Part shown: piece by piece, positions 369 to 11,168 of the stretch | How the letters are laid out: each line of letters starts with the position of its first letter | How positions within the stretch are numbered: position 1 is the stretch's first letter | Translations under genes and position numbers: made by a program | IMG/VR virus record: IMGVR_UViG_2913177423_000002 | DNA: 13,420 nt | Origin: a virus | Lineage: Duplodnaviria > Heunggongvirae > Uroviricota > Caudoviricetes | Direction: 5' to 3' (one strand) | Notes under the pieces: generated by a model | Told to the model about the DNA's origin: nothing | The model's input: only the letters and a program-made list of their open reading frames with translations | The model's database searches: none

Positions 369-866
369 TCATTGCTGCCCCCACAAACAGACTTCACGCT
401 CAATCTCACGACGAGTCATCAGCCCTTTCCATTGCTTACCGCCAGCGTATGTCCAGCGACGTAGCTGGTCACATGCGCCTTTGATATCGCCCTGGTTTAT
501 TTTGTGAAGAAGCGTCGATGTTCTGAAATTGCCAGCACCCACGTTGTAGACGAACGAGTAAAGAGCGCCGCGCGTTGTTTCCGGTATATCGACTTTGATG
601 TACGGGTTAATTTGTCTGGCGACCGTGGCAAGGTCTTTATTCAGGAGGGCTTTGCATTCTGCTTCGGTATACGTTTTACCGGGAATGATGTCTTTTCCTG
701 TATGCCCGTAACATACAGTCCATACACCAACTATGTCTTTGTAAGGATTATGTCTCACACCTTCCAGACCATCGTCACCACTCGGACCAGTGATGAGCAC
801 AGACGCTATGGCAACAGCCCCACCACCAATAGCAGCTGCAACAGCCTTGCGTAATGATGGCGACAT
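369..866 (-). CDS. R: SAR endolysin (phage lysozyme R, phage-21 type)
   Basis: 165 aa ORF from track. N-terminal Gly/Ala-rich hydrophobic signal-anchor-release segment ([20 protein letters not shown]) followed by a lysozyme-like domain. Its ATG overlaps the holin stop (ATGA at 864-868). Confidence 0.9.
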
Positions 867-1556: not shown

Positions 1557-1754
1557 AGATTGTGGTGCTTTTTGTGGTAGTTACCCACTTACGCACTTTG
1601 TATTGCTATGCCAGCAGTTAGCTTCTACTGTAAAACTATTCATGCAGCAAACCTGCACTTCACCACAAAATGGGATTCAATACCCACAACTCTATCTGCA
1701 TCTCTACTCAGGCATCAGCCTTCTTCGTTATCGTATACAGACAAGCTATGAATT

Positions 1755-1970
1755 TTAATCAGTAATAATGACATTTGCTGCTGCAGGACCTTTAGCACCA
1801 CTCTCTACAGAGAAGGTAACCTTTTGGCCTTCAAATAAGGTTCGATAATTATCATTCTGAATTGCAGAAAAATGCACAAACACATCTTTACTACCATCAA
1901 CAGGAGAAATAAAGCCAAAACCTTTATCAGCGTTAAACCATTTTACTAAACCAGTCATTTTATTTGACAT
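1755..1970 (-). CDS. cspB: Cold-shock protein, CspA family (CspB-like)
   Basis: 71 aa [38 protein letters not shown]...; RNP1 motif KGFGFI and RNP2-like VFVHF of the cold-shock domain. Confidence 0.93.
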
Positions 1971-2165
1971 TCTACATTCCTTAACTTGAGCCTTTCGGCA
2001 TAAATGATTTGTATAACAGAAACGACTTCGTACTTAATTGGAGAGACTCAAAGAAGGAATAAGTGAATAACACCTGAAATGAGAACTGCTTTAGTAAACT
2101 ACTTCGTATATCGTCTGTTCTTCAAACCGACGCAGCCATTAACGCATAGTTGTACACTTGGAAGC
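1971..2165 (-). promoter_or_regulatory. cspA-type promoter and long 5' UTR with cold-box-like element for the cspB-like gene
   Basis: About 155 nt between putative start and ATG. Minus strand reads GTTAAT...GGTTTGAAGAACAGACG (compare cspA CTTAAT...ACGGTTTGACGTACAGAC from memory) and contains GCCGAAAGGC near the start codon as in the cspA leader. Confidence 0.5.
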
Positions 2166-2338: not shown

Positions 2339-3091
2339 TTATCTTGTCACCTTTCTCAACTGTGCTTCTGCATATGCTTCTTCCTGCCAGCACTTTGTAA
2401 CCAGTTTATCAATAACATCAGCATACCCCTTGTACCACTGATAATCCGTCAGGTCCGGTACCAGTTTCTGGACATGATGCCGCGCCAGTGTGGTTGGTAA
2501 ACGGCTAAACCGGTTTCCATTGCAACGCCCACAAATCTTATAAACAGGCGTGCCATGAAGCCGGGTCCTTTTTTCATCCAGGACAATACCTTTACCCTTA
2601 CACCCTCTGCACGCTGTGCTGACTTCTCCCTTACCATGACAATGCTGACATAGTTCCTTCACCCACTCTTCCTTGATAACGGATTCCCCGCTTCTGGAAT
2701 GTTTCACCACTTCGCGCAATACATTATGAAATCCCGTACCAGCACAATGCTCACAGCGAGCCTTACTTGCCGCAGACCTGGAATAATCAGCAAAGGCAAA
2801 ATTCACGAGGTAAGGAATAATCTGTAACCGTGTTTCTGCACTCAATTTATTCAATGTCGGGTTATCCAGTGCCATCGCGTAATTGAGCAGACCTTCAATC
2901 GCAAACTGAGGGTCCTGAACACCAACTTTTGCCAGGAATAAGGCAAACCCAAGCGGTGCTTTCGACTGCACCATCCCCTGCGCAGCCATCACATCCGTAA
3001 TTGATAAACCACCTGAGTCTGTCGCCGGTGCGTCATCGCTCAATTTTGGAGATTTTGGGGAGTAATATTTTGGTAAGGCCTCAAGATTCAT
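2339..3091 (-). CDS. quuQ: Late antiterminator Q (QuuQ/YdfT-like, 250 aa) with four CxxC motifs
   Basis: Track ORF 2339-3121 begins at TTG; the ATG at 3091 has a GGAGAG RBS and gives MNLEALPKYY... Position just upstream of the late promoter and lysis genes; CEHCAGTG, CQHCHGKG, CRGCKGKG and CGRCNG motifs. Matches my recollection of K-12 Qin QuuQ. Confidence 0.85.
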   Translation of the reverse strand: MNLEALPKYYSPKSPKLSDDAPATDSGGLSITDVMAAQGMVQSKAPLGFALFLAKVGVQDPQFAIEGLLNYAMALDNPTLNKLSAETRLQIIPYLVNFAFADYSRSAASKARCEHCAGTGFHNVLREVVKHSRSGESVIKEEWVKELCQHCHGKGEVSTACRGCKGKGIVLDEKRTRLHGTPVYKICGRCNGNRFSRLPTTLARHHVQKLVPDLTDYQWYKGYADVIDKLVTKCWQEEAYAEAQLRKVTR

Positions 3092-3307
3092 TCTCGCTCT
3101 CCATTTACACCAGCACGCCAATTGGCAGCAAAAAACAATAAAACGGCATCAACCGATCGTTATCTCTGGCTTCATACAATTGTCTCTGCCAGTGTTTTGG
3201 CGTAATTCTTCAGTATCCGGTAATCGGTCAAAACAGAACCGGGAAACGATATAAGCGCAGGCGCCCCCAGCGGTAGCGAAGGAGTTCTGCCATATATGAC
3301 TCACACA

Positions 3308-3957: not shown

Positions 3958-4120
3958 GATTCCTCCTTGCTGCCAGTCGCAACCATTTTTTATCAACCAG
4001 GCTGGCGGTATATCCGAGCAGTGTTGGTATTTCGGATGGTTTCAGCTCAGGCTTACGCTTACGACGATTTGGTACTCTGTAGATGTGTCCGCTCATGACA
4101 CGAATAAGCGGTGTAGCCAT
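3950..4120 (-). CDS. ninE: NinE-like small protein (56 aa)
   Basis: Not in ORF track (short). ATG at 4120 overlaps the ybcN stop (TAATG); translation [56 protein letters not shown]; its stop overlaps the ybcO start. Confidence 0.8.
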   Translation of the reverse strand: MATPLIRVMSGHIYRVPNRRKRKPELKPSEIPTLLGYTASLVDKKWLRLAARRNHG

Positions 4121-4575
4121 TACGCCTCCTGCTTGTCGCGCAGCAGCTGGAACTCGCAGCTCTGCGGAATAGTCAGGTGGCAGCCAATATTCATCGCCCA
4201 GGCTTCAACCTTACACAGGAAGACATACATCTCTCCGGTATCAAGATCGGAGGTATGGCGTAACGACTGGATCGTAGTGATTTCGCCGGTTACGACATCA
4301 ACCAGGTCCTTGGTTTCATAACCGAGGTATGTGTGTTTGAGTGCATCTTTTACCCATACTGCAGTAGCGAACGTTTTACCCCTGCTGATGAGGTACTCAC
4401 TGATTTCGCTGTACCACATGTGGCTGAGTGCATTCTGGGAAAGACTGCGTCTCTCGCGCCACGGTTTAAGCACCATGCGAAAGCATTTGCCATCCTCCAG
4501 ATAAGGCTGGATCTGCTGACCGATAGCGGTGAAGTTGCCGCGATGTAATTTGATGCCGTCTTGTGGGAGGTTCAC
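4120..4575 (-). CDS. ybcN: YbcN-like protein (DLP12 nin-region family)
   Basis: 151 aa ORF, GTG start at 4575 with GGAGGTGA RBS; first gene of the coupled ybcN-ninE-ybcO-rusA block. Confidence 0.85.
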
Positions 4576-5086
4576 GCTTCACCTCCGCAGAGGTCAAACG
4601 TTGGATGCAAAAAATCGCAGGTGCATTTCTGCATCTGTGAAGGGAGAAGAGAGTTTAGATTGTGTGTGCGCATAAACGTCCCCGTTTAGCGCAGAAGTCA
4701 CCGGAGGTGTTCAGGCTCCGATGACATGATTATGGCGAGTTGATTATGGAAAATCAATTGAAGATGAAATTCAACAATGCCCCATGGTGCTATGGCGCTC
4801 AATTAATTATATAACTTCAGAGAAAACTGATAACCCATTGATGATGACATTAGCTCAGACTAAGAAGACTGACAACGGGGACGAACATGAACAGCAACGC
4901 CTGACATAGGTAAATCTCAAAAGCGAATCATATAATCCTTACCCCATCACTCAGAGACATCGCATAATAACATTCATACCACTATATAACCTCCAAATAA
5001 CAACAACAATTCATTGGTTGCATTAATATCAGCGTGTTCCGTTGTTCAGGAATAAAACTTTTTATTTAACAAACAAAGAGAGTTCA

Positions 5087-5764
5087 ATGATGAGCAAAAT
5101 TACAGGCGTGTTAGTTGATAGCCATATCTATGATATTAAAAATGATATGGAGAGTGGTTACTGTTTCCCTAACAGTTTGTTCCCAGGAGCAACCTTCAAG
5201 ATGGTCATTGATAATGACCCTATTAATAATGACAAGGTAAAATGGACCTGTAGCACTAATGCAGACAATAATGTTCTGGCGGTTAGCCAGGATGGCACAG
5301 TAACTTTTCCGGGCGTAGATGAAAAGTGCGTTGGGAAGATTTTTGTCATTTTCGCCACTGATAAATCAACAAACAAATCTGCCGGCATCTATGTTTTTAT
5401 TGTGAAGCGTTTTTTCAAATACAGCATTGAACTTTATAACTCAGTTAAAGATATTTTACCGTGGATTGAAAACATGAACGGGAATTTTCCTGAGGCACGT
5501 GACATCTATAGTTACGATTATGATAACTATAGTGGACCGCATATTATCAATCGAGAAGTTAACGCAGGGCTTTACCAGGAATGGGGCACGTTATCTAATA
5601 GTGGATGGGACGCAAGTTGTGAGCTTGAGGGTATTTGTAGCATTTACGCTTTTGATAAAGACAATAATACTTATTATTGCCTGCGTGATTATGGAGAAAT
5701 AGAGTGTATTGATCGTTTTTGCGTCGCTCAGGCAGTTGCATCCTACGGAGAATCCATCGACTGA
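5087..5764 (+). CDS. Orphan hypothetical protein (about 226 aa) in an AT-rich island; possible Ig-like N-terminal region plus Cys-containing C-terminal domain
   Basis: Track ORF 5042-5764 starts at TTG; ATGATG at 5087 with AAAGAGAG RBS is the likely start. Opposite strand to all neighbours, AT-rich codon usage, own terminator downstream. Segment KVKWTCSTNADNNVLAVSQDGTVTFPGV...GKIFVIFAT resembles bacterial Ig-like (Big_2-type) domains (weak, from pattern only). Confidence 0.6.
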   Translation: MMSKITGVLVDSHIYDIKNDMESGYCFPNSLFPGATFKMVIDNDPINNDKVKWTCSTNADNNVLAVSQDGTVTFPGVDEKCVGKIFVIFATDKSTNKSAGIYVFIVKRFFKYSIELYNSVKDILPWIENMNGNFPEARDIYSYDYDNYSGPHIINREVNAGLYQEWGTLSNSGWDASCELEGICSIYAFDKDNNTYYCLRDYGEIECIDRFCVAQAVASYGESID

Positions 5765-5840
5765 TTGTGTTTTTTTCAACTATCATTTGCATTATTACAG
5801 CGTAAAGATTCACTGAAATTATAAAATTTAACTTGCGCAA

Positions 5841-5872
5841 AACCACCCGTTCAGCGGGTGGTTCTCATTTTT
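5841..5872 (+). terminator. Rho-independent terminator of the island gene
   Basis: Perfect 9 bp stem aaccacccg/cgggtggtt (5841-5863) with 5 nt loop, followed by a T-run 5868-5872. Confidence 0.7.
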
Positions 5873-6044
5873 ATCCACTATGTATATGAAGCTTAAAAAA
5901 AATAAACGGACTTAAGCGCTCCTTTTTATATTGCTACAAACAATTAATTCTCGACACCTAATAACTAAAGCCCCGCCCCCATATACCGCCAATACCCGTT
6001 TCATAACAAAATGCTGGTGACATTTCTCACCGGAAACTTTATTG

Positions 6045-6650
6045 CTACTGCTCAGAACGCAAATGCGGCAATACTCGGCTCCACTTATCATCCTGCCACG
6101 GCTGGAATCTTACATGTGCCGTTTCTCTGGCAAGGATTTCGCGCGCCTTATGTAGTATCTGGGGATATTCTTGCTCAATAGAAGTAAAGCGACCGGCTTC
6201 GCGATGCTCCGCAACCTGAAGAAGTGGAGTAACATTCTGGCAGGCGGTTAACATCACATCCCCTGCTCGCCATAACCAGGCGAGTGTGCAAAGTTCGTTA
6301 TCAGTGAATTGTTTTGTGATTGGGGATTGTTGAACTTCTCGATCGAGAATATCCAGAACCCAGCGGCGGAATTCTTTGGCTACAGGAGTGCGGGCGAACA
6401 TAGCGATCAAATGGGCACCACGGAGGGAGAAAATGCGTATTGTTTTCTGGTAGTTCCCTGAGACACTCAAATTGAGGGTCTCAGTCATATCTGCCCTAAA
6501 TTCATCGGAATTTCGATCGTAGATCTGAGTTACGGCATCAGATTTTTTATATCCGAGAGCTTGAGCAATCTCAACGGCAGTAAGCCAGATACTGTTGTTG
6601 TGTTTAACAGGATGGAATTTTGTTTGATGAAAGACTAGTTGTGTGCTCAT
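6045..6650 (-). CDS. Bro-N/KilA-N-like domain protein (antirepressor/Roi-like)
   Basis: 201 aa; N-terminal region LVFHQTKFHPVKHNNSIWLTAVEIAQALGYKKSDAV resembles the Bro-N DNA-binding domain pattern. Family assignment from pattern memory only. Confidence 0.6.
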   Translation of the reverse strand: MSTQLVFHQTKFHPVKHNNSIWLTAVEIAQALGYKKSDAVTQIYDRNSDEFRADMTETLNLSVSGNYQKTIRIFSLRGAHLIAMFARTPVAKEFRRWVLDILDREVQQSPITKQFTDNELCTLAWLWRAGDVMLTACQNVTPLLQVAEHREAGRFTSIEQEYPQILHKAREILARETAHVRFQPWQDDKWSRVLPHLRSEQ

Positions 6651-6807
6651 GATGATTACCTATAAATCAAGTTAACCACCACCGCTGACGCCAATCAGTT
6701 TGGTGGTGAGACATGTAGGGTTGGCGTAACCGGGGTAATCAACCGGCCCGACCGAAGTCGGCCCTACACGCCCCACCATAATTCAGATGTGCGTATGCTT
6801 ACGACAA

Positions 6808-6830
6808 TAAAAAACACGCTCGCGGCGTGT
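6808..6830 (-). terminator. Rho-independent terminator downstream of the ninB-like gene
   Basis: Stem acacgc/gcgtgt (6814-6830) with 5 nt loop; on the minus strand it is followed by TTTTTT (plus-strand A-run 6808-6813). Confidence 0.5.
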
Positions 6831-6925
6831 AGTAGTCGCGATTACCTTATCCGGGACGCCAATCCCGTGTGCCGATTTTGCGGCAACGCACAGAATATAG
6901 CGCCAGATATTAGTTATCGTCAACC

Positions 6926-7414
6926 TCACTGATTTCCTCCCCCCGCCGCATAAACAAATAAAACCCGCTTCATCGCGGCACTCTGGCGACACTCCTTGAA
7001 AATCAGATTCGTGCTCACCTTTCCTTCCCGTTCTTCCCTGGTAGCGAACCGGTAATACACCGTTCGCCAGACCTTACCATCAATGACTAAGATTCCTGCC
7101 CGCGCCATTTTAGCCGCAGCCTGATTTATGCTGGTTACTGTTGCGCCTGTTACCTCAGCAACGTCCTGCTGCTTTAATGCTGCTGTAAAAACGCACTTCC
7201 AGCTTTCTGCATCCAGCCAGCGACCATGCCATTCAACCTGACGAGAGACGTCACCAAGGCAAGCCCAAAGCTTTCGATTCTGGTCTAAGCTGCGGTTGCG
7301 TTCCTGAATGGTTACTACGATTGGTTTGGTTGGGTCTGGAAGGATTTGCTGTACTGCGTGAATAGCGTTTTGCTGATGTGCTGGAGATCGAATTTCAAAG
7401 GTTAGCTTTTTCAT
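6926..7414 (-). CDS. ninB: NinB (Orf) family recombination protein, N-terminal half conserved, C-terminal half divergent
   Basis: ATG at 7414 with GGGGGAGAGGGA RBS; MKKLTFEIRSPAHQQNAIHAVQQILPDPTKPIVVTIQERNRSLDQNRKLWACLGDVSRQVEWHGRWLDAESWKCVFTAALKQQDV matches lambda NinB as I recall it, then the sequence diverges. The track start at 7432 is a TTG inside the RBS. Confidence 0.7.
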   Translation of the reverse strand: MKKLTFEIRSPAHQQNAIHAVQQILPDPTKPIVVTIQERNRSLDQNRKLWACLGDVSRQVEWHGRWLDAESWKCVFTAALKQQDVAEVTGATVTSINQAAAKMARAGILVIDGKVWRTVYYRFATREEREGKVSTNLIFKECRQSAAMKRVLFVYAAGGGNQ

Positions 7415-7431
7415 GACTTCCCTCTCCCCCA

Positions 7432-7462
7432 AATAAAAAGGCCTGCGATTACCAGCAGACCT
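7432..7462 (-). terminator. Possible tR2-like terminator between helicase and ninB
   Basis: Imperfect hairpin aggcctgc/gcagacct (one mismatch) followed on the minus strand by TTTTTATTT. Confidence 0.35.
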
Positions 7463-7487: not shown

Positions 7488-8864
7488 TCATACGTCAGCC
7501 CCTTGTGCATATCGTCTGCCACGCGCAGCAGGTGCATTTGATGCTGTGCAAATCTGTCTGGCTTCATCCTGGTCACATGCAACAAAGTGTCCGTTACAGA
7601 ACCGCTGGTAAACCGTACCAAGTGAGCCAAAACGGTTTTTCGTCACGATGATTTCAGCAAATGGCGCGGCGCTACTGTTCTCGTCATATACCGCTTCCCG
7701 ATAGAGCATGATGATTGAGTCTGCGTCCTGCTCAATGCTTCCTGAATCACGCAAATCTGCGTTTGTCGGGCGTTTGTTTGGTCGCTTCTCAACATCGCGT
7801 GAAAGCTGACTTAGGGAGATAACAGGCGTTTTCAGGTCTTTCGCCATCGCCTTAAGGCTTCCTGAGATGTGAGCAATTGCGAGGTCGTTGCGGTCTGCTT
7901 TCGGCTTCTCAATCAGGCCAAGATAATCCGCCATGATGAGTGACAGGTTTGGATTTTCCTGTTTGTGTCGTTCTGCGATTGAGCGAATTTCTTCGACAGA
8001 TAACCGCGAGGCATCGACTACCCATACATCCAAATCTGCAAGCTGACTCATGCCGTTAGCAACGCGCGCCCAGCCTTCGTCATCCATCGATGCAGGATTT
8101 CGCAGCACGCTAACCGACATCCTCCCGGCGTTGGCAATGCTTCGCTCTGCAATCTGCAATGCGCTCATTTCCATCGAGAAAATCAATACTCCGCGCCGGA
8201 CGTCAGAACCAGGAATAACGCGGCTTGCAACGCCTTCGGCAATCTTCAGCGCCAGTTCGGTTTTCCCCATACCAGGACGAGCGGCGATAATCACCAGGTC
8301 TTCCGCGTTCATCCCTCCGGTGATGGCGTCAAGTTCTTCGATTCCGGTCTTCAGGGTATCTGACTCTTCTCCGTTCCTCAGACGCCTGTCAAGCGTGTCA
8401 GTGTAGTCAGTGATGATTTCCCCTAACCGTACAGGTTTAACCTCGTCACGGGGCTTTCTGATGGCTGAGAGCCGTTTTACAAGTTCATCCATCGCCTGAC
8501 TCGATGCGTCGATGGTTCCGCTTTGGATTGGTTCACGCATTTCATCCATGATTTCCAGCACCAGACGGCGGTGATAGTTATCCGCGACCATTCCGGCATA
8601 TCCCTTCAGGTTTGCGGCACTCGGGCAGTTTTTGCTGGTCATCAGGATTGACGTGAAATGCTCCTCTCCGCACGCCTCGGCAACCATCAGCGCGTCGATT
8701 AGGTTTCTGTTTCTCGCCTGCTTGCGGATAACCTCGAAGGCTTTCCGGTAGAGCGGAATTGAAAACGCTTCCGGCTCCAGCGTTGCCAGAACGTCGCTGG
8801 CGGTTGGTGTTAATCCACCAATCAGCAGGCCACCGATAACGCTCGCTTCGATATCCTGTTTCAT
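7488..8864 (-). CDS. Replicative DNA helicase, DnaB family (P22 gene 12-like)
   Basis: 458 aa with Walker A ARPGMGKT and DnaB-like C-terminal motifs; start overlaps the stop of the upstream initiator gene. Confidence 0.92.
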
Positions 8865-10517: not shown

Positions 10518-11168
10518 ATGAATACACAACTGATGGGTGAGCGTATTCGCGCTCGCAGAAAAGAACTCAAGATTAGGCAGGCTGCCCTTGGCAAGATGGT
10601 TGGCGTGTCTAATGTTGCTATTTCCCAATGGGAGCGTTCTGAAACTGAGCCCAATGGCGAAAACCTATTGGCCTTAGCCAAGGCTTTGCAGTGCTCCCCT
10701 GATTACTTGTTGAAAGGAGAAGATAGTCTTTCAAACATTGCCTATCACAGCAGGCATGATCCAAGAGGTTCGTATCCTCTAATTAGTTGGGTAAGCGCAG
10801 GATGTTGGATGGAAGCTGTAGAGCCATATCATAAGCGTGCAATAGATAACTGGTACGATACAACCGTAGATTGTTCAGAAGATTCGTTTTGGCTGGACGT
10901 AAAGGGTGATTCGATGACGGCTCCAGCCGGTCTTAGCATCCCGGAAGGGATGATAATACTAGTCGATCCTGAAGTAGAACCTCGTAATGGGAAGCTGGTA
11001 GTGGCAAAGCTCGAAGGAGAAAACGAGGCAACTTTCAAGAAGTTAGTTATTGATGCTGGCAGAAGGTTTCTAAAACCACTTAACCCACAATATCCGATGA
11101 TTGAGATCAACGGGAACTGCAAAATCATCGGTGTAGTTGTCGATGCAAAAATAGCAAACCTTCCATAA
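10518..11168 (+). CDS. c2: Prophage repressor, P22 C2 type (HTH plus S24 LexA-like autocleavage domain)
   Basis: 216 aa; N-terminal helix-turn-helix (QAALGKMVGVSNVAISQWERSE), Ala-Gly cleavage site and GDSM serine motif with downstream lysine. Near-identical to P22 C2 as I recall it. Confidence 0.95.
   Translation: MNTQLMGERIRARRKELKIRQAALGKMVGVSNVAISQWERSETEPNGENLLALAKALQCSPDYLLKGEDSLSNIAYHSRHDPRGSYPLISWVSAGCWMEAVEPYHKRAIDNWYDTTVDCSEDSFWLDVKGDSMTAPAGLSIPEGMIILVDPEVEPRNGKLVVAKLEGENEATFKKLVIDAGRRFLKPLNPQYPMIEINGNCKIIGVVVDAKIANLP

Follow-up and report, generated by a model that had tools for sequence, protein, structure and literature searches.

A rare, mobile prophage gene that very probably encodes a free-standing receptor-binding tip of the invasin/intimin type

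Introduction

Inverse autotransporters (IATs) possess a 12-stranded N-terminal beta-barrel translocator, which is diagnostic for these proteins (PMC4943183). The receptor-binding tip of two of them consists of an Ig-like domain packed against a C-type lectin-like domain (CTLD), named D4-D5 in invasin and D2-D3 in intimin; invasin binds beta1-integrins and intimin binds Tir (PMC6714894, PMC4943183). Invasin (InvA of Yersinia pseudotuberculosis, 1CWV) has a signal peptide, a beta-barrel, and domains D1-D3 and is located on the cell surface. Intimin (EaeA of EPEC and EHEC; D2-D3, 1F00/1F02) is anchored to the surface as a type Ve adhesin; its receptor, Tir, is translocated. In addition, separate barrel-less polypeptides that resemble IAT passengers have been described, such as ZirS/ZirU, SinI, and Rat-like proteins (PMC4943183). 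Of these, ZirS, ZirU, and SinI are encoded directly after an IAT. Another known group of variable proteins, the Mtd-type variable proteins of DGRs, contains a CTLD with variation near the C-terminus, is encoded by phage-borne genes, and needs no export signal.

In this study, we analyzed a stretch of 13,420 nucleotides from a Caudoviricetes virus record (IMGVR_UViG_2913177423_000002), here called the window. One of its genes, at positions 5090-5764, very probably encodes a free-standing two-domain receptor-binding tip of invasin/intimin-type inverse autotransporters, which lacks the parts needed for export. The protein shares the D4-D5 tip with invasin at the fold level, but comprises about 225 residues in total and has none of the other invasin parts or its surface location; unlike intimin, it is unanchored. 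It represents the terminal D4-D5 tip, whereas ZirS/ZirU/SinI-type proteins contain stalk-type Big domains, and its family is linked to an IAT in one context only, and loosely. The resemblance to Mtd-type proteins is also partial: variation in the family includes indels, is seen between lineages, and does not arise by adenine mutagenesis, and the gene lies outside the tail module. In its architecture, the protein is a new variety of an established module, which is both rare and mobile. In the literature, we found no paper that mentions PF21764/Invasin_D4 and none that describes a D4-D5 protein without a signal peptide.

Results

A single plus-strand gene in the nin region of a lambdoid prophage

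The window spans the region from immunity to lysis of a lambdoid prophage (Table 1); nearly all of its genes lie on the minus strand, and the cI-like repressor gene on the plus strand. The gene studied here is the sole sizeable plus-strand gene of the nin region. Running antisense to the early-right operon, it is flanked by the NinB/YbcN-like gene and the Bro-N/P22_AR_C antirepressor-like gene; its neighbours make up no defence island. An initial annotation of this DNA had called the product an orphan island protein, and the 'island' character agrees with the low GC content of the gene (0.39 vs 0.456 for the whole window), its strand opposite to the flanking genes, and its own terminator.

The plus-strand open reading frame 5087-5764, which codes for 225 residues, is a real gene. 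A search of 5.8 billion proteins identified 24 homologous clusters, nearly all of 222-225 residues and with 43-98% identity, and their members are named only 'hypothetical protein' in every source that gives a name. The homologues start with M(M)SKITG. In an alignment of 22 sequences, Met2 is invariant and Met1 is frequently missing, and in one locus the first ATG is replaced by AAG. Since the Shine-Dalgarno-like element AAAGAGAG (5075-5082, 7 nt ahead of ATG 5090) is also better spaced for the second codon, ATG 5090 is the likelier start. An alternative TTG codon at 5042 would yield a protein of 240 residues; this extension was rejected, because homologues begin at the ATG pair and the 15 added residues are non-hydrophobic.

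The conserved region upstream of the gene presumably contains a promoter and a 5' UTR; the promoter is only presumed, as a consensus scan identified no strong sigma-70 site upstream on the plus strand. The intrinsic terminator falls within the portion of the cassette that is conserved between loci. An sRNA partner inside the cassette was set aside, as Rfam models had no match in the interval 4576-6044.

Table 1. Positions of the gene, its domains and variable segments, the cassette, and the surrounding prophage genes in the window.
Feature	Position	Strand	Basis or remarks
Cold-shock gene, holin, lysozyme	369-866		
NinE, YbcO, RusA, antiterminator Q	2339-3121		
NinB/YbcN-like gene	4120-4575		
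Mobile cassette, ~1 kb (upstream region, gene, terminator)	4949-5945	+	blastn of window 4000-6700 vs fetched loci
Upstream region, AT-rich, conserved (presumed promoter and 5' UTR)	4949-5086	+	Conserved blocks in 8-copy DNA alignment
Coding sequence (stop included)	5090-5764	+	224 aa from ATG 5090; 225 aa from ATG 5087
Ig-like domain, Invasin_D4 type (residues 1-107)	5087-5407	+	Profile, AlphaFold2 model, dN/dS
CTLD, invasin D5/intimin D3 type (residues 108-225)	5408-5761	+	
HV1 (residues 146-155)	5522-5551	+	Column entropy; pLDDT 65; loop before REVN...EWG motif; indels between members
HV2 (residues 175-185)	5609-5641	+	Entropy at least 2 bits at 175-181, 183, and 185; pLDDT 64
HV3 (residues 198-213)	5678-5725	+	Entropy; sliding dN/dS 1.07-1.12; beta-hairpins before last strand
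Strong intrinsic terminator (also placed at 5841-5863)	5841-5873	+	10-bp stem with 6 GC pairs, then T-run
Bro-N/P22_AR_C antirepressor-like gene	6045-6650		
NinB	6926-7432		
Replication initiator and DnaB-type helicase	7488-8864		
cI-like repressor	10518-11168	+	
cro- and cII-like genes		-	Minus-strand set of the window

Both halves of the protein form one known module

The initial annotation had divided the protein into an Ig-like N-terminal region of the Big_2 type and a C-terminal domain defined by its cysteines. Profile and structure both confirmed a beta-rich, Ig-like N-terminal region. The residue numbers given for it exceed the true ones by about 8 (FKMVID begins at residue 37). The assignment to Big_2 (PF02368) did not hold, as this family had no Pfam match even at E<=10. 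The sole match at this threshold was Invasin_D4 (PF21764), with 17.9 bits and E=0.0044, which does not reach the gathering threshold of 27 bits. PF21764 is listed for most family members in a precomputed table, mostly as a weak or faint match where graded. In BFVD, phage proteins annotated as BIG2 matched as a generic Ig fold only (query-normalised TM-score <=0.3).

A profile of the family had one match in the PDB, Yersinia invasin 1CWV (E=7.9e-7). Family residues 4-107 align to residues 304-394 of the 1CWV chain, which belong to D4, and the alignment starts exactly at the first strand of this domain. An AlphaFold2 model built on the family alignment reached a pLDDT of 86.5 and a pTM of 0.85, with pLDDT values of 82-96 across the Ig-like domain. 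Foldseek comparison with the PDB returned invasin 1cwv (E=6.9e-12, 232 aligned columns) and intimin 1f00 (E=1.7e-6); sequence identity between intimin and the window protein is only 10-11%. Furthermore, when 1.84 billion representative proteins were searched exhaustively with an HMM, only 50 matched. In the long matches, the aligned part is formed by the last 150-190 residues, reaching profile position 175-192, and Pfam identifies these proteins as true inverse autotransporters with IAT_beta, Big_1, Invasin_D3, and Invasin_D4 domains.

Taken together, the profile, structure, and HMM matches show that the entire protein, including both halves, is homologous to the D4-D5 tip of invasin and the D2-D3 tip of intimin, and it has the composition of the Ig and CTLD receptor-binding tip of inverse autotransporters. 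This structural reassignment is solid. The C-terminal half is therefore a CTLD homologous to invasin D5 and intimin D3, and the earlier treatment of the two halves as separate units missed that both form one known module. The searches thus recovered an Ig fold, and they revealed no known structural phage protein or characterized family to which the whole protein would belong instead. NCBIfam models gave no match.

The Ca2+- and sugar-binding motifs of carbohydrate-binding C-type lectins (EPN or QPD, plus WND) are absent by direct reading of the sequence. The ligands of invasin and intimin are proteins, not sugars. In the profile alignment, the window protein has a 6-residue insertion in the loop that matches the Asp811 loop of invasin (numbering derived from the alignment). 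The protein is acidic (pI 4.46, net charge -14), with the charge mainly in the lectin-like half. The idea of a DNA mimic was discarded, because such acidity is unremarkable in this fold family (pI 4.45 in the relative P0037).

Loss of export features and of a conserved cysteine pair

Signal peptide, LysM domain, beta-barrel, and Big_1 stalk are all missing from the window protein. The IAT_beta barrel (PF11924) had no Pfam match at E<=10, and true IAT relatives score this model at E values of 1e-91 to 1e-98; moreover, a protein of only 225 residues offers no room for a beta-barrel. Pfam also detected no Big_1 or Invasin_D3 stalk repeats. The absence of a signal peptide, as originally proposed, was corroborated by hydropathy and by the model. 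Neither a hydrophobic N-terminus nor a transmembrane segment is present, the highest Kyte-Doolittle mean over 19 residues being 1.08. Over 12 residues, the maximum is 1.20 in the window protein vs 2.0-2.5 in the signal-bearing relatives P0052, P0031, and P0037, and only 1.38 in P0042, which also bears a signal. In the AlphaFold2 model, Ig strand A begins at residue 5, so that there is no space for a leader.

The window protein contains eight cysteines, five of which are located in the C-terminal half (residues 178, 184, 198, 207, and 212), as had been noted before. However, these cysteines do not characterize the family. In the 22-sequence alignment, C81 alone is invariant and C184 almost invariant, and the counts range from 1 to 8 across the family members counted, with none in the distant relative P0036. 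Being variable across the family, the cysteines of the C-terminal half define no domain. A cysteine-rich, metal-binding, or disulfide domain was rejected for the same lack of conservation.

A different cysteine pattern distinguishes the family from its exported relatives. We aligned the family with six autotransporter tips, the relatives P0042, P0052, and P0037, the fragments P0046 and P0054, and the signal-less proteins P0036 and P0039. Cysteines at two aligned positions are kept in all six autotransporter tips, in the three relatives, and in both fragments, and both are missing from the window family, P0036, and P0039. The two sites are located in helix alpha-1 and in a C-terminal xVxCxRxL motif, where the family has I/V and AQAVAxYG. 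By analogy with invasin and intimin, the pair probably forms the disulfide of the CTLD. It probably corresponds to the Cys907-Cys982 disulfide of invasin D5, although the alignment does not include invasin itself.

Short Enterobacterales D4-D5 proteins (P0042, P0052, P0037, the tandem protein P0031, and the product of L021 6223-7392), identified with the family profile, share the same module and the lack of a barrel with the window family. They have signal peptides and the cysteine pair and are therefore presumably periplasmic or secreted, whereas the window family has neither feature. The coincidence of a missing export signal with a missing cysteine pair provides the strongest evidence in this analysis for folding and retention of the protein in the cytoplasm, and we infer a cytoplasmic location. 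A cytoplasmic sensor or effector had been considered in the initial annotation. A binding role in this compartment is plausible, and more so given the loss of the cysteine pair found in exported relatives.

A constant Ig domain and a variable lectin-like face

Within the CTLD, invariant framework motifs (REVNAGLYQEWG at 156-167, SGW, and AQAVAxYG at 214-221) alternate with three hypervariable segments, HV1-3, which coincide with the lowest pLDDT values of the model. The placement of these loops on the CTLD is based on secondary structure and motif position only. HV2 is the loop that follows the EWG/SGW motif, at the position of the CTLD 'long loop', which is the ligand-binding one, and HV3 is the most variable part of the protein.

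Nei-Gojobori estimates from nine intact copies of the DNA show strong purifying selection on the Ig domain (dN/dS 0.10-0.28), and the framework of the CTLD has values mostly of 0.3-0.6. For the pooled HV segments, unsaturated pairs gave dN/dS values of 1.15-2.35, an inflated estimate, as the segments were picked after viewing the alignment. A sliding window, which needs no prior choice of segments, gave dN/dS values of 0.06-0.29 over residues 1-119, a rise from about residue 120, and values of 0.7-1.1 over residues 144-223. In the lectin-like half, relaxed constraint, and not positive selection, could account for part of the dN/dS value near 1. Overall, the pattern is suggestive of a constant Ig domain combined with a diversifying lectin-like face.

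The 13.4 kb window contains no template repeat of the 3' part of the gene, and no reverse transcriptase was found among its open reading frames; the gene was therefore rejected as a DGR target.

The gene is part of a self-contained mobile cassette

Comparison of the loci delimits a cassette of about 1 kb, whose DNA is 79-84% identical in unrelated chromosomal settings. The loci L001, L010, L011, L012, and L017 match the window from about 4949 (L017 from 4700) to 5895-5945, and in L010 and L012 homology extends to about 6085. We consider it highly probable that the cassette is self-contained cargo (a 'moron') with its own Shine-Dalgarno site and terminator.

L003 and L004 carry the gene at the nin position seen in the window; they are different lambdoid prophages, with DnaB-type replication genes in one and those of the lambda O/P type in the other. 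The L001 copy, whose protein cluster contains 78 sequences, belongs to a decayed prophage remnant that adjoins emrE between ybcH and folD, and the L017 copy lies in an islet between yedF and fliE. L007 and L013 represent an island that carries an integrase, an autotransporter, and the modules TacAT, HipBA, and Fic/Phd. The L014 copy adjoins a lambda-type integrase gene (int), and a truncated copy is found in a like position in L016. Finally, L018-L020 are copies on Rop-type plasmids of 6.5-8.9 kb.

Very few members make up the family, which is nearly restricted to cryptic lineages of Escherichia and often present as several paralogs in one genome. The sources that have a name are cryptic-clade Escherichia, E. 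ruysiae, E. whittamii, and a few E. coli drafts. Escherichia sp. E1V33 has four copies with 98%, 63% (frameshifted), 44%, and 43% identity to the window protein, and three copies are present in the genome of E. whittamii. Among 5,426 complete E. coli genomes, the cassette had no match even in a distant blastn mode; the flank 4602-4757 matches 2,852 records of complete E. coli genomes. Likewise, the family had no match among the 72,556 plasmids of PLSDB.

Discussion

Our tentative reading, to which we assign somewhat less than an even chance, is that the gene encodes a cytoplasmic cargo protein that works by binding only, directs its hypervariable loops against a ligand from mobile elements, and has an exclusion- or immunity-type role. 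Such a protein would stay in the cytoplasm and act through binding alone. The conserved Ig domain would serve as a constant scaffold or as a constant surface for a partner, and the hypervariable loops HV1-3 of the CTLD would recognize a fast-changing protein ligand. This ligand may be part of rival mobile elements, for example a protein of an incoming phage or a toxin that is injected, and the protein would thereby be a single-gene exclusion or immunity-type determinant. We infer binding through the variable loops, the class of the ligand, and a benefit to the host. A ligand from competing mobile elements appears the most likely one, because the gene is carried singly on prophages, remnants, islands, and plasmids, remains intact after decay of the phage, and is present as divergent paralogs within genomes. 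Lacking an effector domain, the protein could do no more than block or titrate such a ligand. A search of PADLOC-DB v2 gave no match at E<=10 to known or candidate defence proteins; a role in defence thus has no support from homology, which speaks against membership in a known defence family but not against work in defence.

A more far-reaching and rather unlikely version would be that an adhesin head has been turned into an intracellular hypervariable recognition protein, which would found a new single-gene class of exclusion or immunity determinants, with the diversifying loops setting specificity by tracking proteins of rival phages or injected toxins, and the sets of paralogs acting as a small repertoire. 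The architecture suggests that the Ig and lectin-like module may be reusable inside the cell, as DGRs reuse the C-type lectin fold. If the ligand is a phage or toxin component, the family would add a binding-only class to the cargo genes of prophages, and it would also supply a small natural scaffold in which three loops tolerate change.

Among the alternatives to a cytoplasmic binder of mobile-element components, the one that survives best, while still unlikely, is that the protein builds up in the cytoplasm until prophage lysis or a holin/endolysin-type route releases it, and then acts as a soluble ligand that blocks or bridges receptors of host cells or bacteria. The host prophage has holin and lysozyme genes that could provide this route. 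Counter to the cytoplasmic reading, every characterized relative of the D4-D5 module acts extracellularly, on integrin or Tir (PMC6714894, PMC4943183; structures 1CWV, 1F02), and the surface with which intimin binds Tir varies considerably among subtypes (PMC4943183). However, with respect to the lytic early-right operon the gene is antisense, and it is intact and under purifying selection in remnants without lysis genes (L001, L010, and L017) and on small plasmids. In addition, the family has lost the cysteine pair of all aligned exported relatives. If the protein were nevertheless released and bound host receptors, it would be a new soluble adhesin-like factor of the little-studied cryptic Escherichia.

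Export by a dedicated system is very unlikely. The protein would then be a substrate of two-partner secretion, as an IAT passenger like ZirS/ZirU or SinI, or a cargo of a T3SS or T6SS. Barrel-less relatives of IAT passengers with domains of the Ig superfamily do exist, and ZirT serves for the secretion of ZirS and ZirU (PMC4943183); moreover, an inverse autotransporter of 2,639 residues is encoded 6.4 kb from the gene copy in the island L007. The genes for ZirS, ZirU, and SinI, however, lie directly downstream of their own IAT (PMC4943183), whereas the L007 autotransporter is on the other strand, with seven unrelated genes between. A tblastn search with three IAT barrels against 25 sources, which include the window and several duplicates, located a barrel within 8-10 kb only in L007 and L008, which represent the same island, and in the absence of a linked barrel gene a two-partner IAT substrate was rejected. 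Passage of the inner membrane would also need a Sec signal, which the protein lacks, and since residues 5-10 already form an Ig beta-strand, there is no disordered N-terminal signal of the T3SS type.

We rank below this, and regard as very doubtful, an accessory role in the virion, in which the Ig domain would attach to a capsid or tail component that is itself conserved, with the hypervariable CTLD as an auxiliary receptor-binding tip, in the manner of Mtd or of Ig-like decoration proteins. A constant N-terminal domain followed by a hypervariable CTLD is the layout of Mtd-type binders, virion proteins need neither a signal peptide nor a disulfide, and Ig-like domains are common on phage particles. 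The position of the gene argues against this role, as it is located in the nin region on the strand opposite to lytic transcription and has its own terminator. Furthermore, PHROGs contained no match at E<=1, BFVD no two-domain match, and 50,697 phage genomes no tblastn match to the family. Purifying selection also persists where structural genes are absent, including on plasmids and islands, and the template repeat of a DGR is missing.

The least tenable reading is that an invasin-like adhesin gene has decayed to a relic without function, of which the 3' end keeps an open frame by chance: it would account for the exact correspondence to the last two domains of inverse autotransporters and for the clear pseudogenes among the copies (a stop at codon 166 in L012, a frameshift in L015, and the truncation in L016), but a recent fragment is at odds with the best match to a full-length autotransporter being only E=2.5e-21, and a dead one is ruled out by open frames of conserved length and start in more than 20 clusters at 43-98% identity, a conserved Shine-Dalgarno site and terminator, indels that are in-frame only, invariant motifs in the variable half, dN/dS values of 0.06-0.3 in the N-terminal domain, the many independent mobile contexts that carry the gene, and purifying selection between the prophage-remnant copies L001 and L010 (dN/dS 0.13-0.27).

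Insertion edge and prophage neighborhood of the cassette

The cassette (window 4949-5945), which carries the family gene, adjoins a stretch with a very different distribution. The non-coding or small-ORF segment just 5' of it (window 4602-4757) has matches in 2,852 E. coli records, with identities of 90-99% and the annotation "hypothetical protein", whereas the cassette itself has no match in the 5,426 complete E. coli genomes searched. This contrast marks the edge of the insertion relative to common E. coli prophages.

The convergent neighbor of the cassette is a putative regulatory module, in which Rfam places a C4 antisense RNA and the Hfq-binding sRNA isrK immediately 5' of a Bro-N/P22_AR_C antirepressor-like gene (Table). 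Together, these elements look like a P1/P7-type c4-ant control module within a lambdoid nin region, and they resemble the isrK region of Gifsy-1. The cassette and this module are flanked by two NinB-family genes of the same prophage. The gene at 6926-7432 matches NinB strongly (E=9e-35), and its product is extended at the C-terminus by a segment with weak similarity to a Crp-type HTH; the gene at 4120-4575 is a weak, YbcN-like match (E=3e-4, under the cutoff).

Elsewhere in the window, a full-length cspA-type thermoregulator and a cold-shock-domain gene are located between antiterminator Q and the holin. The cold-shock gene, which lies in the late-promoter region, is apparently a second piece of cargo.

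Coordinates of features in the window and at loci with family copies or relatives
Feature	Location	Strand	Remarks
cspA-type thermoregulator 5' UTR, full-length	within window 1739-2131	-	Rfam, 156 bits
Cold-shock-domain gene, 71 aa	window 1755-1970 (CDS)	-	inside interval 1739-2131
NinB-family gene	window 4120-4575	-
Antirepressor-like gene	window 6045-6650	-
C4 antisense RNA	window 6699-6783	-	Rfam, 74 bits
isrK sRNA	window 6809-6885	-	Rfam, 61 bits
NinB-family gene	window 6926-7432	-
Decayed copy, E. whittamii	L012 8001-8498		premature stop after codon 165
Decayed copy, Escherichia sp. E1V33	L015 8001-8637		frameshift
Decayed copy, N-domain only	L016 8001-8396		adjoins truncated integrase
Second 225-aa ORF, yedF-fliE islet	L017 9305-9982	-	convergent to family gene
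Barrel-less protein	L021 2298-4253	-
P0036, signal-less D4-D5 relative	L021 4985-5650	+	between the barrel-less proteins
Barrel-less protein	L021 6223-7392	-

Family copies and relatives at other loci

Three copies of the family gene are in decay (L012, L015, and L016), which indicates that family copies turn over within genomes. The islet copy is accompanied by a second ORF of the same length, which is unrelated in sequence to the family gene, has no match in a Pfam search, and ends C-terminally in a hydrophobic, TM-like segment; the shared length of 225 aa appears coincidental.

Three small Rop-type plasmids of Escherichia sp. (L018, 8.9 kb; L019; L020) contain the family member P0021 (52% identity), with a basic 81-aa ORF 5' of the family gene. 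The same plasmids encode a protein of 731 aa that weakly matches Glyco_hydro_19 (lysozyme/chitinase-like); a DUF4087 gene and two small ORFs come after it. As a guess, this set of genes could encode a muramidase-type bacteriocin and its immunity protein.

On a metagenome-derived enterobacterial contig (L021), P0036 and its two barrel-less neighbors form a cluster of soluble invasin-tip proteins. Each of these neighbors, one of 651 aa and one of about 356-389 aa, carries a signal peptide and a lectin-like C-terminus bearing the Cys pair. An emrE-like gene lies close to this cluster.

Divergence of the two domain halves

Window 5087-5761 was compared with the family copies of L011, L007 (island), and L018 (plasmid). 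The lectin-like half shows less synonymous divergence (dS) than the Ig half (0.30 and 0.66, respectively, against L011; 0.76 and 1.76 against L007), and its non-synonymous divergence (dN) is several-fold above that of the Ig half. This pattern may stem from recombination, from separate histories of the two halves, or from a bias of the estimator where dN is high.
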